Under the pieces are notes generated by a model. It had not been told where the DNA came from. It saw only the letters and a program-made list of their open reading frames with translations, and searched no databases. From UHGV virus genome UHGV-0136745: a stretch of 24,121 nt of DNA; one strand, written 5' to 3'. Below, one piece after another: positions 3,216 through 23,354 of this stretch. A program made the translations under genes and the position numbers. The stretch is from a virus. How positions within the stretch are numbered: position 1 is the first letter of the stretch; the number at the start of each line of letters is the position of its first letter.

Positions 3216-5406
3216 AACGTTTCATCTCCGCGCCTTCTGCGACTAAAGGGAACCCCTCGGCCCACTCAGGCAATGCGCACATTAATTTTTCCAGCTCAGC
3301 CACCGTGTACTCCGGTGTATCCGGGGTTTCGCATACCAGTTCATCGTGCACAGAAAGCACGATAGGATACCCACCACCCTCAACATTAACCATTGCATAC
3401 GCAAGTAAATCACGGCACAGCGCCTGAACAATGTTTTCACAGGCCTTGCCGCCGTGTGTGTACAGGGTGGTCCATTGGCGGGTTAACTGGTTTTCACCCT
3501 GGTATTTGATTCGCACATTTGTGTTTACCCGTCCGTCTTCGTCGGTTTCTTTTGTCACACTAACGCCGATTCCTGGATACGATAGAATCCGAGCCGACGG
3601 CAACTCCATACACAACCACCAACCGGGAACTTTCCTGCCGGACGAATCGGTTTCTACTGTTCTCCAGATTCGGATGGCGCGTTCACCATTCTTGCGCAGA
3701 TGCGCCCCTGCCCAAAACTCACGACCCGGATTTCTTACAGCGGCTAAAATTCCATCTTTAAGGTCGCGCCAGAAAGCTACTGTTTCCGGGTGTGACTCAC
3801 GCCACATACGCTTGATCGCGTCGCATGTACGCCAGACTTTCTTATCAAGAATATATGAAGGTCTGTCATCTTTTTCACCGGGACGCGGGGGGCGCTTGGC
3901 TTCCTGAATACGTGCCCACTCGTAACCCCGTGCCGTAGCGGCCCATATATGGTCAGGGAAAGTCCCGTCCATTGTTTTTGCCATCTCAATAAGGTCAAGA
4001 CCTAGGTTTTTAGCAAACGTAACGAACGCTCCTACGCCCCCCTCATAGCCTAGGCCAAGCTCGCAAGCCTTGCCTATCTGTCTGATTTCCTTGAAGTTTT
4101 TCTTAATGTCATCTGGGTCCATGCCGAACATCTTACCTGCGGTTACACAGTAAATATCCAGTCCGGCGCGGAACGTATCGAGCGCGGTTTCTTCTCCTGC
4201 CAGCCATGCCAACCCGCGGCCTTCGACGTTAGAGTAATCGGCGACGACAAACTTATGTCCTGCTTCCGGGATAATGCAGCTACGAACCGTCGATGCCGTT
4301 AGTTTGGCTACGTCAAAACGGCGATGCGCGCGCCCCTTAAGTAGCGCCGCAATTCCTTTATCCAGTTCATCGTCATGATAGTACCCGCGCGCCAGGTTCT
4401 GTGGCTGGAAGCCTTTACCCGCCCATCGCAGAGTACGTTTCGCCCCGCCGTACTGCAAGCAACCACGGCGGCGGTCGTCAGAAGAACGGCCCAACAGCAG
4501 GGGGTTATATTTCGTAGACGCAGTTGACGCCGCGCCCAGGCGCATTTCTATAATCGTGCGCGCATCGTCCGGTAAATCCTCGTCCGCCAGCAGGTCATGA
4601 AGTGTTGACTTCTGCGCATTGTGAATGCGGTGAGCGGGGGCCAGTTCACGCAGAATCGGCAGGAAGTCTTTGCCGGTTAGCGAGCCGCCGTATTTACGCT
4701 GAGCTTCTTCCTGCAACTGCGCCTTGTGTTTCTCTACGGCTTCAATCGCGGATTCCGCCAGAGCGACATCAACCTTAAACCCACGGTCGTTGATTAACTG
4801 GTCCAGTTCCAGAACCCGGTCCTCGAACTCGGAGTTACCCCAACGCGGCAGCTTGTGGAATACTTCACGCATCGCTGTTATGTCGCTCACGGCGTACTTG
4901 ATGAACAACGCCCACTCGTCCGGGTGCGTTTCGGCAGTGTAGCGACGGATTTTATAGTTCTTCGGCGTAGGTTTAGAGAAACGCTGAATCAGCGCCTTGC
5001 CTCGTTTGTCTTTTGCATTGTCCGCAGATACCCCAAGCACTTCACACAACGCATCGAGTGACCCCGGCAGCGCGTGGCGAAACGCCCAAATCATCGTATC
5101 AATGGTGTTGCTGACCGGAATATCGAAGTCCCAGCAGTGCTTCATGATGAGACGGTCGAACATTGAGCCGTTGTGCCAGACCATCTTGATACGGCTGTTC
5201 GGCTTAACCAGGCGGCGCAGTGCACGGTGCAAATCGCCTGGCATGTCGCTGCCGTCTGTGCAATCCCATACCTGAACAGGTTCATCGTCGAAGGCGTAGG
5301 TGCAGATAAGCACTCCGGTAGTCGGGTGTTCGGCGTAGGCATAGGAGCCGACTTTCTTCAAATCGGCTTCGGAGAAGGTTTCAAAGTCCAAGAACAGGTA
5401 ACTCAT
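3205..5406 (-). CDS. DNA polymerase, family A (Pol I-like) with 3'-5' proofreading exonuclease domain
   Basis: 733 aa. Exo I motif FLDFETFS near N-terminus; polymerase motif A VVADYSNVEGRGLAWLAGE, motif B RQIGKACELGLGYEGG (K...YG), motif C LSVHDELV. Confidence 0.9.
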   Translation of the reverse strand: MSYLFLDFETFSEADLKKVGSYAYAEHPTTGVLICTYAFDDEPVQVWDCTDGSDMPGDLHRALRRLVKPNSRIKMVWHNGSMFDRLIMKHCWDFDIPVSNTIDTMIWAFRHALPGSLDALCEVLGVSADNAKDKRGKALIQRFSKPTPKNYKIRRYTAETHPDEWALFIKYAVSDITAMREVFHKLPRWGNSEFEDRVLELDQLINDRGFKVDVALAESAIEAVEKHKAQLQEEAQRKYGGSLTGKDFLPILRELAPAHRIHNAQKSTLHDLLADEDLPDDARTIIEMRLGAASTASTKYNPLLLGRSSDDRRRGCLQYGGAKRTLRWAGKGFQPQNLARGYYHDDELDKGIAALLKGRAHRRFDVAKLTASTVRSCIIPEAGHKFVVADYSNVEGRGLAWLAGEETALDTFRAGLDIYCVTAGKMFGMDPDDIKKNFKEIRQIGKACELGLGYEGGVGAFVTFAKNLGLDLIEMAKTMDGTFPDHIWAATARGYEWARIQEAKRPPRPGEKDDRPSYILDKKVWRTCDAIKRMWRESHPETVAFWRDLKDGILAAVRNPGREFWAGAHLRKNGERAIRIWRTVETDSSGRKVPGWWLCMELPSARILSYPGIGVSVTKETDEDGRVNTNVRIKYQGENQLTRQWTTLYTHGGKACENIVQALCRDLLAYAMVNVEGGGYPIVLSVHDELVCETPDTPEYTVAELEKLMCALPEWAEGFPLVAEGAEMKRYAK

Positions 5407-6151: not shown

Positions 6152-6180
6152 ACTATAATAGCTAACTATTCAGTAGTCAA
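6152..6180 (-). promoter_or_regulatory. sigma70-like promoter (reverse strand TTGACT-17 nt-TATAGT) with embedded palindrome AATAG-N4-CTATT
   Basis: Reverse complement reads TTGACTactgaatagttagctatTATAGT. A CCGGG/CCCGG hairpin lies in the predicted 5' UTR (6126..6140) ahead of the SSB-like gene. Confidence 0.5.
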
Positions 6181-7611: not shown

Positions 7612-7760
7612 AAGTTCCAACCCCATTTAACTTTACGCGTTTTGCGTTTGCAGGCAACCGTGTCGCCGCTACGGTTGAAAATAATCAGCCAAGTTGAGTT
7701 ACTCACTCGAAAAGGCTGGTGACGTCTAACAAATAGAAGTCGCGCTTTACGGTTCGTCAT
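7608..7760 (-). CDS. small basic protein (50 aa), unannotated in ORF track
   Basis: Reverse-strand ATG at 7760..7758 preceded by GGAGG (spacing 7). Translation MTNRKARLLFVRRHQPFRVSNSTWLIIFNRSGDTVACKRKTRKVKWGWNL. ATGA overlaps at both ends with neighbouring genes. Confidence 0.45.
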   Translation of the reverse strand: MTNRKARLLFVRRHQPFRVSNSTWLIIFNRSGDTVACKRKTRKVKWGWNL

Positions 7761-8851: not shown

Positions 8852-8965
8852 TCAATTACGTCTATTTATGTAGTCTGATACCGTGTCCTTAACTAGCACA
8901 CATACTACATACATCAGGATTGCTATCGACGCTAGTAATACTATTGTTATGCTATCTGTGTGCAT
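8852..8965 (-). CDS. possible small membrane peptide (37 aa), unannotated in ORF track
   Basis: Reverse-strand ATG at 8965..8963 preceded by GAGAGGAGAG SD. Translation MHTDSITIVLLASIAILMYVVCVLVKDTVSDYINRRN has one hydrophobic helix-length stretch. Lies in the leader between promoter and acidic-protein gene. Confidence 0.35.
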   Translation of the reverse strand: MHTDSITIVLLASIAILMYVVCVLVKDTVSDYINRRN

Positions 8966-8997: not shown

Positions 8998-9026
8998 ACT
9001 ATAATAGCAAACTATTCACCTGTCAA
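8998..9026 (-). promoter_or_regulatory. sigma70-like leftward promoter (TTGACA-17 nt-TATAGT) with embedded palindrome AATAG-N4-CTATT
   Basis: Reverse complement reads TTGACAggtgaatagtttgctatTATAGT: consensus -35, 17-nt spacer, near-consensus -10. Divergent from the HTH gene promoter. Confidence 0.55.
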
Positions 9027-9029
9027 CGC

Positions 9030-9058
9030 TTTTTATCAAAAAATTAATATGCTACTAT
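9030..9058 (+). promoter_or_regulatory. putative rightward promoter for HTH gene (-10 TACTAT, weak AT-rich -35)
   Basis: gCTACTATTCAcaTATC at 9051..9067 matches the -10 and downstream part of the 12546 and 13921 promoters; upstream is AT-rich (TTTTTA) rather than a good -35. Confidence 0.35.
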
Positions 9059-9089
9059 TCACATATCAATCAGCTAAGGAGTAACCATT

Positions 9090-9314
9090 ATGCAACAGTC
9101 ACCAATTGGCGCTCGTATGGAGCAACGCCGTAAAGAGCTTGGCCTGTCCCAGCGCCGTTTAGCTACTCTGGTCGGCGTTTCCCAGGGGGCGATTAACCAA
9201 CTTGCCCTCGGCGTAACTCAAGATGTCCGTCGCACCACTCTGTTTAAACTTGCGGAAGTTCTCGAAGTTAAGCCAGAGTGGTTAGCTTTCGGTGACCAGA
9301 CTCAAGGGGCTTAA
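9090..9314 (+). CDS. HTH-XRE family transcriptional regulator (Cro/CI-like)
   Basis: 74 aa; ELGLSQRRLATLVGVSQGAINQLALG is a classic XRE helix-turn-helix. AAGGAG SD upstream. Only rightward gene in this region. Confidence 0.85.
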   Translation: MQQSPIGARMEQRRKELGLSQRRLATLVGVSQGAINQLALGVTQDVRRTTLFKLAEVLEVKPEWLAFGDQTQGA

Positions 9315-9331: not shown

Positions 9332-11596
9332 CTATTCCAAATCCTCCTCAGTCACTACCAGCATTTCGTTCGGTTCGTACACGGTCTTCGGTATCTTGCT
9401 GTCGTTAATCCTGGTGTTTAGCCTGTATCGCCCAGGTATTATCTGATTGTTCTCGTCAGTACCGGGTACAAGATATCCTGCTTCAACCATTTTCTTAATC
9501 TTACCGCGCTCTATAGCTTCCTTAGAGTTGAACGCCTTTGCATTAGGGTCAGACTGCGCAAGCTTATTAGCTGCGGCTACTGTGATACCTTCGTTGCCGT
9601 TGTAGGTTCCCTCCGCCAGTTCAAACGCAGCCAGTATCGTGGCTTCTGAACTGTTTACTGCGTTCTCTACGGTTTTTCGTACATTTTCTTTACCTTCCTT
9701 TGTCAGCCCTTCTTCCTTCTCTTTCTCTTCGTCAGTCTTGAATGGCTCAAAGCCCCACGGCATCAACACGAGCGCCTTATGTGGCTCCGGTAGGTCGAGG
9801 TTTACGATTGTGCCGTATTCCTCGGTGCTGCCGATGAATTCTACCGCGCGGTACGCCTTCGGAGGAGGGGCTTCACGGAACTGTACTGACTCCAGCACCA
9901 TGCCAATCGTTTTCTGTTGCGGCCCGTGCTTAAATTTAGTGTGTGACACGTTAATCTGGCGGTCGGTTGCACGTTCAATTGTCAGTTCCACATCGACACC
10001 CGCATACAGCGCACCACTGCCACGGGCTTTCTTTCCACCTTTTGGCGTGTGATGGACCACACCAACGGCGGCTTTAGTCGCGTCGCGGACTTCTTTCAGT
10101 ATGGCTATAACTTTACCCATACCGATTGCCGTTGATGAACTATTCTCGTCGAACTTATCAATCGTCAGGGCCAGCGTCTGGTTAAGGGTGTCGAACGCAA
10201 CCATGCCAATTGGCTCATCGCCAGCAGTTTCGCGCATCAGCTTAATCAGGCTTTTCAGTTTGCCGACGTCGCCCATATCGATAACGTGGATGTAGTTCTT
10301 CCCTTCCTCTCCGTACTTAGCCGCGAGCGCATCAATACGTGTGCGCGTAGCTGCACCGCCCTCACCATCGATATAAAAGTGATGGCAGCGTTGGGTGTCC
10401 GCACCTGCAAACCGATATCCGGCAGCGCTCAGGTACATCATGCCAAGGGTGTAGAAAGACTTATATGTGCCGGACTCACCGACAATATCCCAGATACAGT
10501 CCGACGGCATATAGCCCTCGACGACGAAATCGGCCTTTACCGGTTCCGGTAAATCGTCTTCCTCAGAGTCGTCGTCTTCCAGGTCGTCAAGGCTACATTC
10601 GACCGTTTCACGTGCACCCCAGCCGATGGCCTCAGCGACTTCACTGAACGGCAGCCCTGTCGCTTCGCAAGCGTATTTCCACACCTCTTTCGGCGACATC
10701 CCCTCTGTTGCCGTTAGGTCGGTGTCGTGAATCATGGTTACGTTAGGCGCAGCGTAGCCCTCGCGCGGGAAGCACAGCAGGAAATCATCCGGGCGCGGTG
10801 TCGGGTCACTGTAGTTCTCGGCGTGCTCAGGCGTCGCTGGCATCTTCAGACCACGTGGTGTAATGACACCGCCATACTCGAATGCCAGTGCTTCGAACGC
10901 GTCCGTAAACGCTGTGCGCAGTTCTTCCGGTATCTGGTAGTCGGATGCGCTGCTTACCTCGTAATCCGGGACTCCTTCCAGCAGACGGTCAGGGTCAATC
11001 ATGCCATTTCGGCGAGACCAGACGACCTCAGAGTTAACTGGCGGCAGGTACATCGGCTGGGACAGGGTAAACCCGCTGCGGTCAGCACCCATGCCTTTAA
11101 AGAAGTGCTCCAGCAGCCCGTGGCGGACGCGGATGATATCACCACCCTCTACCGGACGCGCCAGCGGCATGACGACACGGAAACGCGGTGATTCGTCGGT
11201 GTGTGATGCCGTGGTGTAAAGGCACATTGCTACACGGCTGCGCTTAACCAGACGCACAGCTTCCTGATACTCTTCTGGCGTCGCGCTGTCAAAATCCAGA
11301 TAAGCCAGTGACGATTTACTTACTGACGCGTCACAGCGGTAGAAGAAGCCCCGTCTCGCCTGTTTAAACTCGCCCGTTTCCGGGTCTTTCACGGTGCTGT
11401 GTGTTGAGCCGCACGCGGCAGTAATGTACCCCGGCGCGGTCTTTGGGTTAATCCCGTCACGAACGGCGTCAAGTGGCTGGATTAACTCTTTAAGGTCGTC
11501 CAGTGTTGCCGTGTGAGTGGTTCTGACGTTTATATCCTTTTTCTCCGCCCGCGCGTTGCGGCGAGACCATGAATAGGATAAAATTACATCGGACAT
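9332..11596 (-). CDS. DNA primase/helicase (primase-polymerase N-terminal region plus RecA-fold helicase domain)
   Basis: 754 aa. Walker A-like VGESGTYKSF, later VVHHTPKGGKKARGSGALYAGVDVEL (RecA/DnaB-like helicase motifs), acidic linker (DDLEDDDSEEDD). Size and position fit phage primase-helicase fusions. Confidence 0.8.
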   Translation of the reverse strand: MSDVILSYSWSRRNARAEKKDINVRTTHTATLDDLKELIQPLDAVRDGINPKTAPGYITAACGSTHSTVKDPETGEFKQARRGFFYRCDASVSKSSLAYLDFDSATPEEYQEAVRLVKRSRVAMCLYTTASHTDESPRFRVVMPLARPVEGGDIIRVRHGLLEHFFKGMGADRSGFTLSQPMYLPPVNSEVVWSRRNGMIDPDRLLEGVPDYEVSSASDYQIPEELRTAFTDAFEALAFEYGGVITPRGLKMPATPEHAENYSDPTPRPDDFLLCFPREGYAAPNVTMIHDTDLTATEGMSPKEVWKYACEATGLPFSEVAEAIGWGARETVECSLDDLEDDDSEEDDLPEPVKADFVVEGYMPSDCIWDIVGESGTYKSFYTLGMMYLSAAGYRFAGADTQRCHHFYIDGEGGAATRTRIDALAAKYGEEGKNYIHVIDMGDVGKLKSLIKLMRETAGDEPIGMVAFDTLNQTLALTIDKFDENSSSTAIGMGKVIAILKEVRDATKAAVGVVHHTPKGGKKARGSGALYAGVDVELTIERATDRQINVSHTKFKHGPQQKTIGMVLESVQFREAPPPKAYRAVEFIGSTEEYGTIVNLDLPEPHKALVLMPWGFEPFKTDEEKEKEEGLTKEGKENVRKTVENAVNSSEATILAAFELAEGTYNGNEGITVAAANKLAQSDPNAKAFNSKEAIERGKIKKMVEAGYLVPGTDENNQIIPGRYRLNTRINDSKIPKTVYEPNEMLVVTEEDLE

Positions 11597-11654
11597 GTGT
11601 ATATTCCTTCAGCAAGTAATTTGGCCTCGGCGTTCACCGCGTCGGGGCTTTCTT

Positions 11655-11945
11655 TTAACGTTTAGCCAGACATTCCATTAAATGTGAATATTTTCTGTAA
11701 TAGCAAGGAACTAAATCACACCCAAAATAATGATAAACATAATCCAAGTGGTCGGTAACATCTATAGCGGCCGACATTGTGCTAAGACGGCGAAGGCTAA
11801 TCAACTGTAATTCTTCCGTAATGCAAAATGGCTCATACGTATCAAGTTTGCAAGAAACGTTAAAACACAGAGCATAGCCGTCTTGTGCGGAGTGGACCAG
11901 AAATGCACTGTCGTTCTCTTTATCGTGAAAAATTACACCTTTCAT
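11655..11945 (-). CDS. hypothetical protein (96 aa)
   Basis: ORF in operon orientation; start overlaps stop of upstream AlpA-like gene (ATGA). No recognisable motif. Confidence 0.45.
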   Translation of the reverse strand: MKGVIFHDKENDSAFLVHSAQDGYALCFNVSCKLDTYEPFCITEELQLISLRRLSTMSAAIDVTDHLDYVYHYFGCDLVPCYYRKYSHLMECLAKR

Positions 11946-12112
11946 CTCACATTCTCCTTAACCCACGCTTCTACTTTATTTCGGTCAAACGTACCCGGCA
12001 TACGGCGGCCCATTACTTTAACGCTGCAATCAGGGAACTTCCCGCTTTTAATCCAGTTGTTTATTGTCTGGCGAGTAACTCCGATTAATTCTGCAACCTC
12101 GTTTATAGTCAT
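11942..12112 (-). CDS. AlpA/excisionase-family HTH DNA-binding protein (56 aa)
   Basis: MTINEVAELIGVTRQTINNWIKSGKFP is the AlpA/Xis-type HTH signature. Start at internal ATG 12112 with AGGAGA SD; track ORF extends to 12184 with an implausible Cys-rich N-terminus. Confidence 0.65.
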   Translation of the reverse strand: MTINEVAELIGVTRQTINNWIKSGKFPDCSVKVMGRRMPGTFDRNKVEAWVKENVR

Positions 12113-12522
12113 TTCACGCTCTCCTGTGTAAGATGTAGTGAAGTATAAAGCGGTAACTTTGTAAAAGCAACCAAAACAACACACAAAGCACTAAGATACA
12201 AAAGATGCTACTGGTATTGACTTTTACTTAAAAATATGCTAAGCTTCACTGAGCTTGTGAGATATCGCAAGCGACCGCGGAGCGGCAGGGAACGCAACGC
12301 GTGCCATCAGGCACTTGAGTGTAGTTCCGCTGGCGCTTTCGGAAGGGCCAAAGTCTATTGTTAATCACGCCTAAATACCCAAGTCACTGATAATTAAAGT
12401 TTCTATAGTTGCCGTAAGCAAGGTAGCGAGTACTTCACTCCGCTGGGGTGGGCTAACGCCCACCCACTGCGTTGCGTACTCTTTTAAGAAAACGAAGAAT
12501 CACAACGGCAACGAATCTTCGC

Positions 12523-12551
12523 TTGCACACCCCAATATAATAGGCTACTAT
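12523..12551 (+). promoter_or_regulatory. rightward promoter (TTGCAC-17 nt-TACTAT) with embedded palindrome AATAG-N4-CTATT
   Basis: cTTGCACaccccaatataataggcTACTATtcacttatcgaaacgag; about 45 nt are near-identical to 13896..13940. Precedes the first small-gene operon. Confidence 0.45.
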
Positions 12552-12585
12552 TCACTTATCGAAACGAGACAGATGAGTGGGGGTT

Positions 12586-12777
12586 ATGTTTAAGAAGGGT
12601 CAGTTGGTGCGAACCGCAGACGGCATCTATGGAGTTATCGAAAAAGAGAGTACTGTGTATCGAAGGTCGTATATAGTCCGTTCTCTTTATATCAGCGGGT
12701 CAGTATCTGTGCTGGTTTGCGACATAAATGAGCTACTACTCATCGGCAACAATTTTAAATTCAAAGGGGCGAAGTGA
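12586..12777 (+). CDS. hypothetical protein (63 aa)
   Basis: ATG 12586 preceded by GAGTGGGGG; alternative GTG at 12577. First gene of rightward operon. Confidence 0.5.
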   Translation: MFKKGQLVRTADGIYGVIEKESTVYRRSYIVRSLYISGSVSVLVCDINELLLIGNNFKFKGAK

Positions 12778-12980
12778 TGGAAGAATTATTTGAAGAACTG
12801 AAACACCATGAACTGGAAGAAGTGCATTTCCGGGTAAACAGATACGAAGTTGTTATTTTAGGTGGGGTAACAATTATCACAGCTTCTGCGGGAAGAATGC
12901 TTCATAGTTTACGTTCCATACGAACGACATCGAATCATGATGCCAGTGCCGACGACTCTGAGGGAGGTTGCCGTGAATAA
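12774..12980 (+). CDS. hypothetical protein (68 aa)
   Basis: Start overlaps upstream stop (GTGATGG). Acidic N-terminus. Confidence 0.5.
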   Translation: MMEELFEELKHHELEEVHFRVNRYEVVILGGVTIITASAGRMLHSLRSIRTTSNHDASADDSEGGCRE

Positions 12981-13028
12981 TTACACGTTTATTTTAATTG
13001 TCAGCGCCGTTTGTGTGGTGCACGCGTT

Positions 13029-13232
13029 ATGGGGGCTGGTGTGGGGATTCGAATAATCGACGTTGATTATGTTCTTCCGCCGGGTTATGGCGACCATTCA
13101 CTGCGCTACTTTGGCGTCTCCGTCGGAGATGAGTTCGAGGTTATAACTTATAACGATTACGGGTGCACCGTTGAGCATTGCGGGGAAGAACTGTACGTGC
13201 GTCGACGTGAATATGTGATTCTGGAGGGCTAA
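13029..13232 (+). CDS. hypothetical protein (about 67 aa)
   Basis: Track ORF 13011..13232 begins at TTG; first in-frame ATG is 13029. Start ambiguous; overlaps a candidate 27-aa hydrophobic ORF at 12973..13056. Confidence 0.4.
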   Translation: MGAGVGIRIIDVDYVLPPGYGDHSLRYFGVSVGDEFEVITYNDYGCTVEHCGEELYVRRREYVILEG

Positions 13233-13235
13233 GTT

Positions 13236-13379
13236 ATGAGAGAAGCATTTGAACGCTGGGCCGTCGTCGAGGGGTTGCCTGTTAACAAGGGTTCGAAGAA
13301 AGAGTACCTGAACGTTAAGACGCGTCTTGCGTGGCGTGCGTGGAAAGCTGGGGTTTTGTTTATCACGAATCAGAGGTGA
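13236..13379 (+). CDS. hypothetical small protein (47 aa), unannotated in ORF track
   Basis: ATG 13236 preceded by GGAGGG; translation MREAFERWAVVEGLPVNKGSKKEYLNVKTRLAWRAWKAGVLFITNQR; stop 3 nt before the next gene. Confidence 0.4.
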   Translation: MREAFERWAVVEGLPVNKGSKKEYLNVKTRLAWRAWKAGVLFITNQR

Positions 13380-13382
13380 GTT

Positions 13383-13586
13383 ATGGGCGAGTGGATTAAG
13401 TGTAGTGAGCGGATGCCGGAAGAAACGGGAGACATTATTGTTTGTTGCTTCGACGGCATAGTAATGTCCGGGATTTCTTACTCACGGAGTAAAGGGTTCT
13501 TCATAGCTGCGTTGGAGTATGACGATGATGAGCCGATTGACGATGTAGTCTACTGGATGCCGTTACCAGAGCCGCCGGAAGTGTGA
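13383..13586 (+). CDS. DUF551-like phage protein
   Basis: MGEWIKCSERMPEE...VVYWMPLPEPPEV: N-terminal W-x-x-C-x-ER-x-P and C-terminal WMPLPEPP are as I recall them for DUF551. GAGGTGA SD. Confidence 0.55.
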   Translation: MGEWIKCSERMPEETGDIIVCCFDGIVMSGISYSRSKGFFIAALEYDDDEPIDDVVYWMPLPEPPEV

Positions 13587-13628
13587 TGTTATATTGTAAC
13601 AATAGTTTGGGATTTTACTGAGTGACTT

Positions 13629-13666
13629 ACGCTGCTACACAGCAGCGTATCATTTTTCTCATTTTT
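13629..13666 (+). terminator. intrinsic terminator
   Basis: Perfect 8-bp stem ACGCTGCT-acac-AGCAGCGT followed by atcaTTTTTctcaTTTTT. Confidence 0.6.
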
Positions 13667-13719
13667 GTTCTATTTCACGAAACGCAACAATCGAAGCGAC
13701 TATTGCAGGAGATGCAACA

Positions 13720-13890
13720 ATGAAACCAAATGACATCGTAACCTGGGTCGGGCGTAACGGAGAAAAGCGATTCGGTCTTATCGTAGCTACCAACGGCAAC
13801 ACGTATCGGGTTATGCGCTGGCGACAGTGGGCTAAGAGGCCGAGGTACTACTGGATTAGAGAAGAGAGACTTTCTCTTAAACACCAATAA
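13720..13890 (+). CDS. hypothetical small basic protein (56 aa), unannotated in ORF track
   Basis: ATG 13720 preceded by GCAGGAG; translation MKPNDIVTWVGRNGEKRFGLIVATNGNTYRVMRWRQWAKRPRYYWIREERLSLKHQ. Preferred over antisense ORF 13675..13887, which lacks an SD and opposes operon direction. Confidence 0.4.
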   Translation: MKPNDIVTWVGRNGEKRFGLIVATNGNTYRVMRWRQWAKRPRYYWIREERLSLKHQ

Positions 13891-13897
13891 AATTTAC

Positions 13898-13926
13898 TTG
13901 CACACGTAGATATAATAGACTACTAT
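13898..13926 (+). promoter_or_regulatory. rightward promoter (TTGCAC-17 nt-TACTAT) with embedded palindrome AATAG-N4-CTATT
   Basis: cTTGCACacgtagatataatagacTACTATtcagttatcgaaacgag; near-identical to the 12523 promoter cassette. Confidence 0.45.
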
Positions 13927-13957
13927 TCAGTTATCGAAACGAGAGGAGAGACAGAGC

Positions 13958-14101
13958 ATGAATAACAAACCGGTACAAGAACCATCACGCGAGGTACTAG
14001 AGTTCTACGCATTGTCACCTAGGAATACCCGTGAACGCCAGACCGCTCGGTTATTACTGGAACTTATGAACAGAGAGGCTAAAAATGCAGAACGCAAATG
14101 A
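13958..14101 (+). CDS. hypothetical small protein (47 aa), unannotated in ORF track
   Basis: ATG 13958 preceded by GAGAGGAGAG; translation MNNKPVQEPSREVLEFYALSPRNTRERQTARLLLELMNREAKNAERK; 3' end overlaps next gene start. Confidence 0.4.
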   Translation: MNNKPVQEPSREVLEFYALSPRNTRERQTARLLLELMNREAKNAERK

Positions 14102-14522
14102 CGCAGTAATCGAGTTCCTGCTTAACCAGTTACGGCAGCAGCTAACGAAAAACCCATACAAGCAACAGTGCGAAGACCTGGCCCATGAGGTGTTGTCGCT
14201 CAAGAACCAGTTACGTGATGCTTCGGCGCTGGCGGCTGAGTTGCAGAAAGAGCTTGAGCACACAGGCAGTGAGTATCGACGCGCGATTGATTACGCTCTT
14301 AGCGATGCGCCTGAGCAATCTGGCTGCCGTAAAAATGATACCCAGGAGTGTTATCATAACTGGCGATTTGTTGGCGGTAAGTCACCGGCTGTATGTGTTA
14401 ATTGCGGTGTGACTAAGTCAGAAGGATGTGCGCACGATTGGAGGGTTGTGCAGTATTGCGCGGGGGTAGAGACGGATAAGTGTCGTATTTGTGGGGGAGA
14501 AAAAGAGGTTCACTACGAATGA
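14085..14522 (+). CDS. hypothetical protein with helical N-terminal half and Cys-rich (zinc-ribbon-like) C-terminal half
   Basis: 145 aa; C-terminal CYHNW...CVNCG...C...C...CRICGG suggests metal binding. AGAGG SD. Confidence 0.55.
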   Translation: MQNANDAVIEFLLNQLRQQLTKNPYKQQCEDLAHEVLSLKNQLRDASALAAELQKELEHTGSEYRRAIDYALSDAPEQSGCRKNDTQECYHNWRFVGGKSPAVCVNCGVTKSEGCAHDWRVVQYCAGVETDKCRICGGEKEVHYE

Positions 14523-14719
14523 CCACACTCCTTTTCATCTGGACTTTGACCGCGGGCCAGTTACAACTAGCGGCAACAGAAACGTTTTACTCACTTGAGG
14601 CGTGCCAGGCTGCAGCACGCAACGCAGAGAACGCGCACTTCCTGTTTCAGGATAAGCCGATTGATACTGAGGTGCGCGCAACATGTTCAACGAAGCGATT
14701 AGGTAAGCAGGAGAAATAA
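14519..14719 (+). CDS. hypothetical protein with N-terminal hydrophobic (signal/anchor-like) segment (66 aa)
   Basis: Start ATG 14519 overlaps upstream stop (ATGA); MTTLLFIWTLTAGQLQLAA is hydrophobic. Confidence 0.45.
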   Translation: MTTLLFIWTLTAGQLQLAATETFYSLEACQAAARNAENAHFLFQDKPIDTEVRATCSTKRLGKQEK

Positions 14720-14720
14720 G

Positions 14721-14903
14721 ATGGTACAGAGATACGAAATAGCCGGGAAATATATGGTGTACCCAAAAGACGAGGGGCGAATTGTTTTATACGAAGACTA
14801 CGCGAAACTCGAAGCCGAGTTACAGAAATACAAAGACCAGTTCCCAGATTACGTAGAGTGTCCGAATTGTGGGTCGTTTACACATGTGGAAGGGGTGGAA
14901 TGA
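14721..14903 (+). CDS. hypothetical protein (60 aa) with CPNCG motif
   Basis: GCAGGAGAAATAAG upstream of ATG 14721; single CxxC. Confidence 0.5.
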   Translation: MVQRYEIAGKYMVYPKDEGRIVLYEDYAKLEAELQKYKDQFPDYVECPNCGSFTHVEGVE

Positions 14904-15067
14904 CACTCGCAACTGACATCATGAAACACAGCGGCAAAGCGCCGCTGTCACCACGTAAAAGACATTTCAACACGCATCCGACGTATCTAGAATTACATGA
15001 GCGCCGGAAGACACCAGCACAACGACTGGCTGAATATTGGAGAAAGCATGACTACTATCGCGTTTGA
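14900..15067 (+). CDS. hypothetical small basic protein (55 aa)
   Basis: Start ATG 14900 overlaps upstream stop (ATGA); GAAGGGGTGG upstream. 3' end overlaps the HslV-like gene by 20 nt. Confidence 0.4.
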   Translation: MTLATDIMKHSGKAPLSPRKRHFNTHPTYLELHERRKTPAQRLAEYWRKHDYYRV

Positions 15068-15485
15068 CGGTAAGACGATGGCCTGCGACACCCGGGTTAC
15101 CTGCGGAGACACGTTCTGCAACACCGATACCAAGATATACGAGAACGATGCTTATGTTATCGGGGTCGCCGGTGACGCGGGTGTCGGAACTATGCTCGTT
15201 CAGGTGTCAAATATCCTGACTATGCGTACTTATGAGTATAACTTCCAGGCTATCGTATATGAGAAACATACCCAACGTATCTTCTATGTGTCGTTCGATA
15301 AAAAATGGGAGTCAAATAGCAGCGTTGTCCCAATTGTTGATAGCTACTTCGCCGTCGGTTCAGGGGCTGATTTCGCGCGCGCAGCTATGTATTTAGGTAA
15401 CACCGCAACACGCGCTGTTACGGTAGCTGCAGAGTTCGACATAAACACGGGGGGCAAGATTATTACCAAACCATTATTCGGATAA
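15048..15485 (+). CDS. HslV/proteasome beta-subunit-like N-terminal-nucleophile (Thr) peptidase
   Basis: From ATG 15048 (GGAGAAAG SD): MTTIAFDGK... with Thr directly after Met, as in HslV (TTIVSV...); VIGVAGDAG vs HslV VIAGFAGGTAD; YFAVGSGADFARAAMYLG vs HslV LIAIGSGGPYAQAAARAL. No HslU-like ATPase in the window. Confidence 0.65.
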   Translation: MTTIAFDGKTMACDTRVTCGDTFCNTDTKIYENDAYVIGVAGDAGVGTMLVQVSNILTMRTYEYNFQAIVYEKHTQRIFYVSFDKKWESNSSVVPIVDSYFAVGSGADFARAAMYLGNTATRAVTVAAEFDINTGGKIITKPLFG

Positions 15486-15501
15486 TTCCTAACCGTGGTA
15501 T

Positions 15502-15537
15502 CCTCCAGGTACAGCATACTAAATACGCACCTGGAGG
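15502..15537 (+). promoter_or_regulatory. inverted repeat that would sequester the holin ribosome-binding site
   Basis: CCTCCAGGT (15502..15510) and ACCTGGAGG (15529..15537), 18-nt spacer; the right arm contains the GGAGG SD for the TTG start at 15545. Confidence 0.4.
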
Positions 15538-15544
15538 ATTCATC

Positions 15545-15853
15545 TTGGATAAATTTACTGAAACTGTGACAGGCTGGCTTCTGGCTGCCGCACTAGCTGG
15601 CGGAGTAATAGGCCTACGGCAACATAAAGCCACTATTACCGGCCCTGTCGATGCTCTCTGTTTTCTCGCCACTGGCTTTGCGTGTGCCGTATTCGGTGCG
15701 CCTCTCGCCGCTCAATGGTTCGGTATCGCAGGTGAACGCGAAATAGCGGGCCTTGGGTTCATCATTGCTATTCTCTGGATGCCGATTTATTCCCGTCTCT
15801 CTGGCATTGTCGCCGGAGAATACATCGCACGTCGCGGAGGTAGCAATGACTGA
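15545..15853 (+). CDS. holin-like protein, three predicted TM segments (class I-like)
   Basis: 102 aa; hydrophobic stretches TGWLLAAALAGGVIGL, ALCFLATGFACAVFGAPLAAQWF, IAGLGFIIAILWMPIY; charged C-terminus. TTG start with GGAGG SD. Directly upstream of lysozyme. Confidence 0.55.
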   Translation: MDKFTETVTGWLLAAALAGGVIGLRQHKATITGPVDALCFLATGFACAVFGAPLAAQWFGIAGEREIAGLGFIIAILWMPIYSRLSGIVAGEYIARRGGSND

Positions 15854-16127
15854 GTTATTCTGGTTTGGCGGTATGCTCGCAATCGGGGGCACATCGCTGT
15901 TTAATGTATACCACCCCAGCGTAGATGATGGCCTGTTTGGGCGTGTGCTGTATATCCTCACTGCTATTGTTTGCGCCGCCGGTTGCATCCACCTGCTACA
16001 GGGCAGCATGTCACCGACGCTGCCGGAAACATTAATCACCCTGGTAGCGCTGCGACAGATTCGCCAGTCGTGGCTGCATTACCAGTCGAAAGGAGGGCAT
16101 AAGCGTGTCTCGAAACATTTCAGATAA
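15846..16127 (+). CDS. second holin/antiholin-like protein, two predicted TM segments
   Basis: From internal ATG 15846 (overlaps upstream stop): MTELFWFGGMLAIGGTSLF..., LYILTAIVCAAGCIHLL, basic C-terminal tail. Track ORF starts at 15753. Confidence 0.5.
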   Translation: MTELFWFGGMLAIGGTSLFNVYHPSVDDGLFGRVLYILTAIVCAAGCIHLLQGSMSPTLPETLITLVALRQIRQSWLHYQSKGGHKRVSKHFR

Positions 16128-16590
16128 TGGCTTGCATTTCTGCGCCGAGTTCGAAGGCTTCCGTGGAACTGCGTACCGCGCTACGCCGGATGAGAAGTAC
16201 CTGACTATAGGCTACGGGCATTATGGCGCAGACGTTAAGCCTGGTCAGACTATCACGCCGGGGCAAGGCCTCCTGCTACTCAATCGCGATATGGCTAAGG
16301 CGGTAGCCGCCGTTGATGCCGCGGCGCATCACTCACTGACGCAGGGCCAGTTCGACGCAGTATGCGACCTGGTGTTTAACGCAGGTGCTGGCGTTATCGC
16401 GGCTACTACCGGTACTGGTAAGGCCCTGCGCGCAGGTGACATTGCTACGCTGCGGGCTAAGCTGGCGCTGTTTATCAACCAGAACGGCAAACCGTTACTC
16501 GGCCTGCGCCGCCGTACAGCCGGGCGTCTGGCATTGTTCGACGGTAAACCGTGGCAAGAGGCGGTTGCTATCGGGAGGGCGGTAAAATGA
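16105..16590 (+). CDS. endolysin, GH24 lysozyme (T4 e / lambda R-like fold)
   Basis: N-terminal GLHFCAEFEGFRGTAYRATPDEKYLTIGYGH carries the Glu...Asp...Thr catalytic arrangement of phage-type lysozymes. GTG start with AAAGGAGGG SD. No TM segment, so holin-dependent. Confidence 0.85.
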   Translation: MSRNISDNGLHFCAEFEGFRGTAYRATPDEKYLTIGYGHYGADVKPGQTITPGQGLLLLNRDMAKAVAAVDAAAHHSLTQGQFDAVCDLVFNAGAGVIAATTGTGKALRAGDIATLRAKLALFINQNGKPLLGLRRRTAGRLALFDGKPWQEAVAIGRAVK

Positions 16591-16802: not shown

Positions 16803-16832
16803 CCCGGCCCTGACCCAGCCGGGATTTTTTTA
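16803..16832 (+). terminator. intrinsic terminator after lysis cassette
   Basis: CCCGGC-cctgaccca-GCCGGG followed by ATTTTTTTAT. Confidence 0.6.
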
Positions 16833-16853
16833 TCTATTTTCTGTAATGACTAG

Positions 16854-16882
16854 TTGACTATTACTCTGACACCAATTATATT
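16854..16882 (+). promoter_or_regulatory. sigma70-like promoter (TTGACT-17 nt-TATATT)
   Basis: ttGACTagTTGACTattactctgacaccaatTATATTtact, about 30 nt upstream of the 16916 gene and just after the terminator. Confidence 0.45.
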
Positions 16883-17113: not shown

Positions 17114-17262
17114 TGAAAATAACAGATATCGAAGCATTCAAAGACGCGCAACTGATGGCACGTATCGCCGTTAGTAACCTGAGCAACAGCATTCCAGCGG
17201 ACGCGTTCTGGTTCGCCGCGATGCAGACACTGAAGGCAGCGTATGCAGGAGAGAAGAAATGA
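17113..17262 (+). CDS. hypothetical small protein (49 aa), unannotated in ORF track
   Basis: ATG 17113 overlaps upstream stop (TAATG); translation MKITDIEAFKDAQLMARIAVSNLSNSIPADAFWFAAMQTLKAAYAGEKK; stop overlaps next start (ATGA). Confidence 0.45.
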   Translation: MKITDIEAFKDAQLMARIAVSNLSNSIPADAFWFAAMQTLKAAYAGEKK

Positions 17263-17468
17263 GCGAAGTTACCGTCGGTGGCATCTACAGGAGTGATTAT
17301 TCGTGGGGTGAAGAGGATGACGCCAGATTCATCGTAACCGCGGTAGGGTTGGACCACATACTTATCGCGGACTGCCCATTGATAAAATTCAATGACTCAT
17401 ATTTAGAATATTGTGTTGGTAGAAAGGAGTTTGAGGCTAAATTTAAGTTTGCAGGAGAGAAGAAATGA
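17259..17468 (+). CDS. hypothetical acidic protein (69 aa)
   Basis: ORF with GCAGGAGAGAAG SD; flanked by a 24-bp direct repeat at both start and stop junctions. Confidence 0.5.
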   Translation: MSEVTVGGIYRSDYSWGEEDDARFIVTAVGLDHILIADCPLIKFNDSYLEYCVGRKEFEAKFKFAGEKK

Positions 17469-17626
17469 GCGAACAAGGTCAAGTAAGCCAACCGTTACGT
17501 GTGGGCCGTAAAGTCAGTCACACCCAGTTCCCGACACGTGAGGAACTGATGAAACGTAACAGTTTCCCGGGGCCGGACAAGAACAAGTATCTCAATCGCA
17601 TGTGGGGAGAGCGTAAAAATGACTGA
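17465..17626 (+). CDS. hypothetical small basic protein (53 aa), unannotated in ORF track
   Basis: ATG 17465 within the second copy of the 24-bp junction repeat; translation MSEQGQVSQPLRVGRKVSHTQFPTREELMKRNSFPGPDKNKYLNRMWGERKND; overlaps next start. Confidence 0.45.
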   Translation: MSEQGQVSQPLRVGRKVSHTQFPTREELMKRNSFPGPDKNKYLNRMWGERKND

Positions 17627-22251: not shown

Positions 22252-22273
22252 AGCCCCGAAAGGGGCTTTCTTA
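22252..22273 (+). terminator. weak terminator/attenuator hairpin between portal and head morphogenesis genes
   Basis: AGCCCC-gaaa-GGGGCT followed by TTCTTAT (short, interrupted U tract). Confidence 0.35.
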
Positions 22274-22277
22274 TAGT

Positions 22278-23354
22278 ATGCTATTAACTTTAGCGCCACA
22301 GGGTTTATTTATGAGCTTACTGACATCATTAATCAGCCACCAGATTTGGCTGCAACGCAACGCATCCGGTGAAGTGAAAGACCTCGCACCATTCATTCAG
22401 GAGATGCGGGACGAAATCAAACGGCAGGTGCTGTTGTTCGGCGACGACGGGCGAAGCACCGCGCGTCTGAATAAACTGTTACGCGACCTAGAAGAAGCAC
22501 TGACGGGGCTTACAGGCGACTGGCAGACTAAACTGACAGAAGACCTCAAGGAACTGGCGGCGTATGAGGCTGAGTGGAATGTGAAGACACTCACGGCTAA
22601 CGTTAATGCGGAATTTGTTACCCCGACCGCTGAGCAGGTGTGGTCTGCTGCCGTGTTTCAACCGCTGGCGTTAAGCGACAAGCCAGTTGATTTCACTAAG
22701 CTGATGGAAGGCTGGGGTGAAACGGAAGTATCGCGCCTCGTAACCGGCGTTAAGATGGGATTTGTACAAGGCCAGACAACACGGCAGATTATAAAAAACG
22801 TTGTTGGCGGGGGCGGACTGGCAGACATCTCCGAACGCAACGCTGCTACTGTAATCCGCACCGCGCTTTCGCACGTATCTAACGAAGCCCGCAAAGAGAC
22901 GTACCGACAGAACAGCGACATCATCGAGAAATACGAATGGGTGTCCACGCTCGACAGCCGCACCAGCACAATATGCAAGGCCAGAGACGGCATGACATGG
23001 GAAATTGGCAAAGGACCTATGCCGCCCGCTCATTTTGGGTGTAGAAGTACCACAGCACCAGTAATAGGTTCAGAGTTCGACTTCCTTGATGCAGGCGCAA
23101 AACGCGCGGCTAAGGGTGCAGATGGTGGAACACAGGTTAGCGCGGACACCACTTACTACGAGTTTCTGAAACAACAGCCAGCGTGGTTCGTGGATGAAGC
23201 ACTCGGGCCGACCCGCGGTGCGATATTCAGGAATAGTGGGATATCACTAGAGGAATTTCGGGTAATATCTGTCGACGCGTTTGGGAGACCGCTAACCTTG
23301 AAAGAGATGGCGGCCCTCGACGGCAGAGTTGCTGAATATCTTAAATCGTTATAA
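22278..23354 (+). CDS. head morphogenesis protein (Mu F / SPP1 gp7-like minor head protein)
   Basis: 358 aa; PMPPAHFGCRSTTAP matches the conserved H..CRC-type motif of the Phage_Mu_F family. No SD before ATG 22278; ATG 22311 is an alternative start. Confidence 0.7.
   Translation: MLLTLAPQGLFMSLLTSLISHQIWLQRNASGEVKDLAPFIQEMRDEIKRQVLLFGDDGRSTARLNKLLRDLEEALTGLTGDWQTKLTEDLKELAAYEAEWNVKTLTANVNAEFVTPTAEQVWSAAVFQPLALSDKPVDFTKLMEGWGETEVSRLVTGVKMGFVQGQTTRQIIKNVVGGGGLADISERNAATVIRTALSHVSNEARKETYRQNSDIIEKYEWVSTLDSRTSTICKARDGMTWEIGKGPMPPAHFGCRSTTAPVIGSEFDFLDAGAKRAAKGADGGTQVSADTTYYEFLKQQPAWFVDEALGPTRGAIFRNSGISLEEFRVISVDAFGRPLTLKEMAALDGRVAEYLKSL

Follow-up and report, generated by a model that had tools for sequence, protein, structure and literature searches.

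A family of palindrome-bearing, probably sigma-70-type promoters heading small-gene operons in a Kagunavirus-like siphophage

We analysed a repeated promoter-like cassette in a stretch of 24,121 nucleotides (nt) of the virus genome UHGV-0136745 (the window, taken at its full length), which comes from a lytic, Kagunavirus-like siphophage of the Guernseyvirinae. The two stretches under study, at 12522–12569 and 13897–13944 on the plus strand, are probably members of a genome-wide promoter family that is read by the host sigma-70 RNA polymerase and in which a palindrome serves as operator. The two copies are identical at 42 of 48 bases, and a 47-nt degenerate pattern built from the pair matches just these two places in the window, with no match in 100 dinucleotide-preserving shuffles. 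An earlier note on this DNA had described near-identical copies of about 45 nt, each with a −35, a palindrome and a −10; the similarity was borne out over 48 nt (the note's copies start 1 nt early and end about 4 nt short), as was the layout at both copies (TTGCAC, a 17-nt spacer and TACTAT, with the palindrome TAATAG-N4-CTATTC).

The repeated cassette and its family

Copy 1 (12522–12569, plus strand; "copy 5" of the family) has its −35 TTGCAC at 12523–12528 and, after the 17-nt spacer, its −10 TACTAT at 12546–12551; the palindrome spans 12538–12553 (TAATAG 12538–12543, CTATTC 12548–12553), and the predicted start is A12558, from which the leader runs to the ATG at 12586. Similarly, copy 2 (13897–13944, plus strand; "copy 6"), a minority allele among relatives, has TTGCAC at 13898–13903, the same spacing, TACTAT at 13921–13926 and the palindrome at 13913–13928 (TAATAG 13913–13918, CTATTC 13923–13928), with a predicted start at A13933 followed by the Shine–Dalgarno region GAGAGGAGAGA and an ATG at 13958. 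The likely transcription start sites, 12558 and 13933, place the two ATGs 28 and 25 nt after the predicted +1. Both copies look like promoters lying 25–28 nt 5′ of co-oriented small-gene operons, in agreement with the earlier note's view that they head accessory operons.

Seven matches to the core TAATAGnnnACTATTCA lie in the window, where 0.17 would be expected, and ten related genomes have 7–12 each; the pair therefore belongs to a larger family, of about 10 copies per genome in this group of E. coli and Salmonella phages, and is not the isolated two-copy duplication that had been supposed. Common to all members is the 16-bp palindrome TAATAG-N4-CTATT(C/A), which is found in two architectures. 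In type B, which includes both copies, the arrangement TTGC(A/G)C-ACCCCAA-TATAATAG-GnT-ACTATTCA puts the −10 TACTAT inside the right arm of the palindrome; each Kagunavirus genome has 4–6 such sites, some of them heading minus-strand gene islands in the structural region. In type A the same 16 bp stand reversed inside strong minus-strand TTGACx-17-TATAGT promoters of replication operons, where the palindrome fills the spacer and just its last two bases reach the −10. The register of the palindrome differs between the two types by about 5–6 bp.

Three type A members lie in the window, all on the minus strand: one at 2649–2677 (TTGACG-17-TATAGT, palindrome 2652–2668), one at 6152–6180 (TTGACT-17-TATAGT, palindrome 6156–6172), which heads the operon of the single-stranded DNA (ssDNA)-binding protein and the DNA polymerase, and one at 8998–9026 (TTGACA-17-TATAGT, palindrome 9002–9018 in the spacer), which diverges from a regulator gene at 9090–9314. 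The leader of the last, AAACGAGAGGAGAGA, is the same as in copy 2, and directly behind this promoter we observed an unlisted hydrophobic open reading frame (ORF) of 37 amino acids (aa), MHTDSITIVLLASIAILMYVVCVLVKDTVSDYINRRN, at 8852–8965 (minus strand). The regulator gene itself is headed by a type-B-like member at 9045–9061 (plus strand; variant TAATAT-GCTA-CTATTC, −10 TACTAT at 9053–9058, weak −35), back to back with the type A site at 9002–9018.

Palindrome-like sites were also seen at two terminators. At 16803–16831 (plus strand) a terminator (CCCGGC...GCCGGG followed by a T-run) precedes a promoter, TTGACT-17-TATATT at 16854–16882, whose −35 overlaps the palindrome-like site TAATAGTCAACTAGTCA (minus strand, 16847–16863); this terminator–promoter unit, 16803–16882, is kept in all Kagunavirus genomes compared. 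At 22252–22288 (plus strand) the terminator AGCCCCgaaaGGGGCT with its T's is followed by the one-mismatch palindrome-like sequence TTATAGTATGCTATTAA, just 5′ of the gene for a 358-aa head protein, and this site is kept in K1H (2787).

Conservation in related phages, on which the earlier note had placed weight, was found in 211 phage records that keep the cassette. A host origin, either as a host-derived promoter or as a site for a host transcription factor, received no support: a 61-nt version of the cassette had no match in 5,426 complete Escherichia coli genomes, and the matches listed for the 16-specified-base core across 596 Gb of genomes are scattered single ones in unrelated taxa, which we judged to be at chance level (our own estimate of the chance number in that collection is about 280).

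Promoter signals, palindrome conservation and candidate ligands

Several observations support reading by sigma-70 in the sense direction. The arrangement TTGCAC-17-TACTAT, with its hexamers 17 nt apart, is present at both copies and invariant in orthologues. We recovered orthologues of copy 1 by flanking sequence, independently of the motif (41 distinct, 40 of them from Kagunavirus), and the −35 TTGC(A/G)C is kept in all 40 of the Kagunavirus sequences. Furthermore, of the 142 unique type-B sites gathered from GenBank genomes and from 80 loci in IMG/VR, 138 precede an ORF in the same orientation by no more than 70 nt, with a Shine–Dalgarno sequence and ATG within about 25–35 nt. Type-B copies also head minus-strand islands within plus-strand structural operons, for example ORF15–18 of K1H, and no other promoter candidate was seen for the minus-strand islands of the structural region.

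The same orthologues reveal the pattern expected of an operator. ATAATAG and TACTATTCAC are unchanged in 40 of 40 Kagunavirus sequences, while the centre of the palindrome (GGAT, GGTT, GTAT, GGGT or GGCT), the spacer just upstream of it and leader positions +5 to +8 vary. The dyad TAATAG-N4-CTATT(C/A), with invariant half-sites and a free centre, overlaps the core promoter in both promoter types. Since ATAATAG lies in a part of the spacer that sigma-70 does not read, and since the same 16 bp recur in the other orientation and register, a dimeric DNA-binding protein is the simplest explanation, and a protein so bound would exclude polymerase, because the palindrome overlaps the −10 and spacer in either register. 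The earlier note had proposed selection on more than polymerase binding, through either a regulator site or a conserved element in the 5′ untranslated region (UTR); the first part of this proposal is supported by the invariant spacer half-site, whereas the second is not.

The 5′ UTRs counted from A12558 and A13933, 28 and 25 nt long, are purine-rich and run straight into the first gene, and they fold worse than shuffled controls (z = +1.8 and +1.3). Such short, unfolded leaders suit translation initiation and argue against an RNA structure; the leader is essentially an unstructured ribosome-binding region. A search of 11500–14500 against Rfam gave no match, and on these grounds we rejected the idea that the leader common to both copies is a riboswitch or other structured 5′ UTR element. 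Paralogues, both promoter types and the three genera share a TTA at the predicted start and AACGAGA(G) immediately ahead of the Shine–Dalgarno sequence. The leader TTATCGAAACGAGA, present in both copies of the window, is specific to the minority copy-2 allele; copy 2 carries TTTACACAAACGAGA instead in most relatives. Identity between the two copies within a genome ranges from 32 to 41 of 47, the window being at the maximum, and the minority allele may be a product of conversion.

The best candidate ligand is a single-domain HTH_3 (XRE) protein of 74 aa encoded at 9090–9314 (plus strand; Pfam HTH_3, 3e-13). Its best relative of solved structure in the PDB is the Cro protein of phage 434 (E = 5e-7, full-length alignment), and the homologue nearest to it beyond the subfamily holds the place of Cro in a lambdoid Klebsiella phage. 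It is conserved at 77–80% in Kagunavirus, 51% in Jerseyvirus and 38% in Cornellvirus, and is the only helix-turn-helix (HTH) regulator found to be common to the three genera. The sites around the gene have an autoregulatory layout: the variant site at 9045–9061 lies upstream of the gene, divergent from that at 9002–9018, and a site of this kind, with the divergent one beside it, is kept upstream of the XRE gene in both Kagunavirus and Jerseyvirus. No CI, integrase or second XRE gene is present in the annotated relatives K1H and CR01, and without a CI partner or lysogeny module the system is not an immunity switch.

In the proposed mechanism, the 16-bp palindrome in each family member would be an operator for a dimer of this 434-Cro-like protein. 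The bound protein would occlude RNA polymerase, leading to co-ordinate shutdown or tuning of the accessory and replication operons. The regulator gene's own weak promoter carries a variant of the same site. The Cornellvirus phage VSiP offers a comparison. Its XRE homologue, 38% identical, has a different recognition helix, and TAATAG-N4-CTATT is replaced there by ATATTA-N6-TAATAT, which at analogous loci overlaps the −10 of promoters of the TTGCAC/TTGACA type and has 7 sites where 1.3 would be expected. The palindrome promoters of VSiP, at 7673, 14868, 27442, 37445, 38061 and 40950, have the −10 TAATAT overlapped and leaders with TTAACGAGAGG or TTAACGAAGAGG. This comparison weakly supports a pairing of regulator and operator. 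The corresponding comparison of Kagunavirus with Jerseyvirus was set aside as uninformative.

A number of points weigh against a sigma-70 promoter family under one Cro-like repressor. The sense promoter matches the consensus at 8 of 12 positions, under the 9/12 cut-off of our consensus scan, which consequently did not list it and gave an antisense TCGATA-17-TATATT (9/12) at copy 1 instead. No mapping of transcription starts for Guernseyvirinae was present in the literature searched, where work on transcription or repressors of the subfamily amounted to PHIRE lists and one coarse RNA-seq time course; the latter, on the Kagunavirus K1B4, gives coarse timing and no promoters. The recognition helices of Kagunavirus (SQGAINQ) and Jerseyvirus (SQSLITH) differ, yet the half-site TAATAG is the same, so covariation between these two genera is weak. 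Because one arm of the palindrome overlaps the −10, RNA polymerase accounts for part of its conservation; likewise, the similarity among paralogues could stem partly from gene conversion and not from selection. That the palindrome is bound by the 434-Cro-like protein, with repression as the outcome, is something we infer from sequence. Finally, both copies are present, 996–2102 bp apart, in all of the 34 distinct genomes examined, a limited sample, with no sign of a deletion or fusion between them.

The strongest competing explanation, which we regard as unlikely though deserving of attention, is that these are plain host promoters without a separate ligand, the palindrome being a by-product of two −10-like hexamers (TATAAT and TACTAT) and the resemblance of the copies arising from shared ancestry, from gene conversion and from selection on nothing but promoter strength. 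The palindrome does hold a perfect TATAAT along with the functional TACTAT, one half-site always overlaps a −10, and the copy-2 allele of the window has a patchwork look, with a copy-1-type leader, that suggests conversion. However, ATAATAG, the half-site outside the −10, belongs to the spacer, with which sigma-70 forms no base-specific contacts, and is invariant in the 40 orthologues while its neighbours vary; the same 16 bp are kept reversed and in another register in the TTGACx promoters; a different palindrome occupies the analogous Cornellvirus promoters; and the centre of the palindrome varies freely, as it does in dimer operators.

A different ligand is a considerably poorer prospect. 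The second candidate, a 56-aa HTH_17 (excisionase/MerR-like) protein encoded at 11942–12112 (minus strand; promoter TTGCTT-17-TATACT at 12170–12142), might bind the palindrome as an activator or as a promoter-loaded antiterminator, and we think this improbable. Its gene, which has a Pfam HTH_17 match, adjoins copy 1; it is annotated in relatives as an AlpA-family or excisionase-type regulator; an HTH gene, probably the same one, is classed as early in K1B4; and the weak 8/12 promoters would suit an activator. We nevertheless placed the XRE protein ahead of it, because tblastn and a Pfam search of neighbouring ORFs turned up no homologue in Cornellvirus VSiP, although VSiP keeps palindrome-bearing promoters. 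Moreover, the gene's own promoter is without a good copy of the palindrome, and the perfect 6-4-6 dyad with half-sites one helical turn apart has the classic geometry of a Cro/CI-type HTH_3 dimer.

We give still less weight to the suggestion that the conserved leader is the −35 of an antisense promoter, making the cassette bidirectional and able to fire leftward. The scan places TCGATA-17-TATATT on the minus strand at 12562–12534, and the quasi-palindrome supplies −10-like hexamers on both strands; against this, the leftward HTH_17 operon has its own gene-proximal promoter (TTGCTT-17-TATACT) in the window and in relatives, the TCGATA positions vary in orthologues (TCCGAT, TCAATA, TCTATA, ACGATA) and at the other loci bear no resemblance to a −35, the −10 that copy 2 would have on the antisense strand is TATATC, lacking the final T, and no ORF lies in the antisense direction. 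The first two of these points led us to reject an antisense or bidirectional promoter as the main cause of leader conservation. We attach almost no credence to a promoter for a phage-encoded RNA polymerase, the label given to PP1–PP7 of the Kagunavirus fBC-Eco01 (PMC9825357, which lists TGAATAGTa-ccTATTat-T seven times under it), and reject it: sigma-70-type hexamers at 17-nt spacing accompany every site, a gene for such a polymerase is absent both from the window and from the annotated genomes of K1H and CR01, all proteins of more than 700 aa being DNA polymerase, helicase-primase or tail proteins, and with no RNA polymerase encoded by these phages the published attribution is wrong.

Gene replacement at the cassettes and the surrounding sequence

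The best whole-window database matches cover about 70% of the window at 84–87% identity, and homology around both copies is mosaic when compared with ten genomes. Copy 1 forms an isolated island of homology (12494–12571) with genomes L002, L009 and L010, and homology to L008 starts there; copy 2 is an island (about 13879–13955/69) with all 10. Among about 36 distinct Kagunavirus genomes, copy 1 is joined, immediately downstream of AAACGAGACA, to either of two unrelated genes, and the first gene behind copy 2, which is joined at its start codon, comes from at least 15 families. One gene family, MNKATASVV..., is found after the copy-1 promoter in CR01 among other phages; in BCH953P1 it lies behind a copy located in the structural region. 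The two copies themselves are at fixed loci in every relative examined.

These patterns bear on the earlier note's proposal that recombination at the repeat swaps accessory cassettes. The cassettes do lie at mosaic breakpoints and gene replacements, and are therefore exchange joints; recombination between the two copies, however, has left no trace in the 34 distinct genomes, natural deletions between them included. Genes are apparently exchanged between one phage and another at the conserved cassette, and not by looping out between copies. The segment from about −50 to the start codon is the only sequence conserved among otherwise unrelated neighbours, so that homologous recombination of co-infecting relatives would resolve at the cassette, which would thereby become a joint for accessory-gene replacement.

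Promoter turnover was evident at the copy-1 locus of Jerseyvirus Kenya-K7 (L009), where the orthologue at 37072–37260 is decayed (TTGCAT...ATAACAGGATGCTATTC) with no gene behind it, and an intact second promoter 140 bp downstream drives the orthologous MFKK gene. In phage BEU33 (L011, about 4300–4375, minus strand) a type-B promoter at position 4344 is followed directly by the terminator AAGGCCCCttaatGGGGCCTTTTAT with no gene between, which looks like an emptied promoter–gene–terminator unit.

Left of about 12112 the window holds minus-strand genes for a SNF2 helicase, DNA polymerase A, a PD-(D/E)XK nuclease, the ssDNA-binding protein and an AAA_25 helicase-primase. Right of 12586 the genes are on the plus strand: five small ORFs to 13586, a terminator, a 56-aa ORF, copy 2, and a block reaching to the endolysin. 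The first operon, headed by copy 1 (12586–13586), comprises ORFs of 47–73 aa at 12586–12777, 12774–12980, 13011–13232, 13236–13379 and 13383–13586, the last of them DUF551, and its content is mosaic among relatives. It ends at a strong intrinsic terminator (13628–13657, plus strand; stem-loop TACGCTGCTacacAGCAGCGTA followed by a T-run, −19.4 kcal/mol, z = −4.6). Between this conserved terminator and copy 2, the 56-aa ORF (13720–13890, plus strand) is mostly unmatched in the ten genomes. The second rightward block, headed by copy 2 (13958–16590, plus strand), contains small ORFs, holin-like genes and the endolysin (16105–16590, plus strand; Phage_lysozyme match).

Just 3′ of the terminator, at 13670–13684 (plus strand), CTATTTCACGAAACG resembles the right arm of the palindrome plus leader (CTATTCACTTATCGAAACG) and may be a decayed promoter ahead of the variable ORF at 13720–13890; the homologous spot in Jerseyvirus L009, at position 38050, has a one-mismatch palindrome. 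Farther right, a 27-nt repeat at 17241–17267 and 17447–17473 (plus strand, 96% identical, G.TGCAGGAGAGAAGAAATGAGCGAA) covers the ribosome-binding site and the first three codons (MSE), forming a shared translation-initiation cassette of two adjacent, otherwise unrelated small ORFs.

Upstream of copy 1 we observed a structured element. A strong promoter, TTGACT-17-TAAGCT at 12217–12245 (plus strand), is followed directly by an ORF-less, GC-rich RNA of about 115 nt (12217–12360 with the promoter), which lies about 160 nt upstream of copy 1 and folds to −49.3 kcal/mol (z = −3.5). Many Kagunavirus genomes have two paralogues of this RNA, 77–83% identical, the second before the spanin genes (K1H 4614–4727); Jerseyvirus has one (L009 5754–5854) and Cornellvirus none. 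Covariation supports this structure: in the alignment 95% of cells are paired, against 31–47% with the partners slid; 7 pairs show compensatory changes, and the covariation score, 0.201, is reached by none of 500 shuffles, which give 0.096. Rfam contained no match to it. The layout, promoter-proximal, in two copies and reading into long operons with internal terminators, recalls the HK022 putL/putR antiterminator RNAs, a resemblance offered as a lead. Between this element and copy 1, at 12446–12466, lies a perfect 8-bp GC-rich hairpin (GGGTGGGC-taac-GCCCACCC) with no adjacent T-run on either strand; it is kept in L003 and L011, and a different hairpin is found in other relatives.

Relation to known systems

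The motif as such is already published, listed in genome notes under the phage-RNA-polymerase label. For fBC-Eco01, the PHIRE sites PP1–PP7 were given the consensus tgAATAGTa-ccTATTat-T and called phage RNA polymerase promoters (PMC9825357), and seven PHIRE-predicted promoters were reported for vB_EcoS-Golestan (PMC7203180). Read on the other strand, the consensus from Escherichia phage fBC-Eco01 is TAATAG-N4-CTATTCA, and the two copies analysed here have PP6 and PP7 as their orthologues. The PHIRE papers give 20-mers only, without the −35/−10 context, the two orientations, the operator reading or the mosaic junctions. Absent from the literature searched were the sigma-70 promoter reading, the operator-like conservation, the link to a Cro-like protein and a quantified role as mosaic joints. 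Nothing is overturned: early promoters in repeated copies, operators of the Cro type and mosaic joints linked to promoters are each of a known kind.

Phages of Kagunavirus and Jerseyvirus find wide use in therapy and biocontrol, and it has been suggested that they could serve as synthetic-biology chassis. Reading the family as sigma-70 promoters with a shared operator would give a testable model of one protein and ten promoters, together with portable, probably co-regulated promoter parts; the cassettes also mark natural sites of accessory-gene exchange that could be useful insertion points for engineering. It is quite possible, although we stop short of calling it probable, that a 434-Cro-like protein with no CI partner controls about 10 dispersed promoters in two orientations and registers throughout a strictly lytic subfamily, that operator and regulator have co-diverged between genera (TAATAG-N4-CTATTA in Kagunavirus/Jerseyvirus, ATATTA-N6-TAATAT in Cornellvirus), and that the same cassettes are the principal recombination joints for accessory genes, as a siphophage counterpart of the promoter-early stem-loops (PeSLs) of T4.

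As in the Cro/CI operators of 434 (OR/OL), P22 and lambda, a small HTH_3 protein nearest to 434 Cro is accompanied by 16-bp dyads that overlap the core promoter, with half-sites one helical turn apart, at several sites per genome that include the divergent promoters flanking the regulator's own gene. Unlike the lambdoid systems, the strictly lytic phages considered here have no CI, integrase or lysogeny module, and their roughly ten putative operators are dispersed and single, not arranged in tandem as OR1–3 are. The PeSLs of T4-type phages (PMC2839356, PMC4122927) resemble the family in being a short regulatory motif present in many copies beside variable small ORFs, with indel or replacement ends falling in the motif. 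The differences are that the phages here are siphophages of about 43 kb and not T4-type myophages; that the motif carries a protein-type palindrome; that 12522–12569 and 13897–13944 have no stem-loop or terminator inside them, the nearest terminator lying 270 nt upstream of copy 2; and that no deletion by recombination between copies was seen (34 distinct genomes). In the window, the terminator–promoter unit at 16803–16882 is nearer to the PeSL form than the two copies are. Morons, known from lambdoid phages and other siphophages, offer a further comparison: like them, some of the family stand ahead of a single small gene inserted between conserved ones, and at position 4344 of L011 a promoter is followed by a terminator as if a gene had been lost; unlike morons, the two copies studied here head multi-gene operons at loci fixed in every relative examined, and are not sporadic insertions. 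Functionally, the palindrome and HTH protein come closest to a Cro-type operator system; in evolutionary behaviour the nearest counterparts are the PeSLs and morons.

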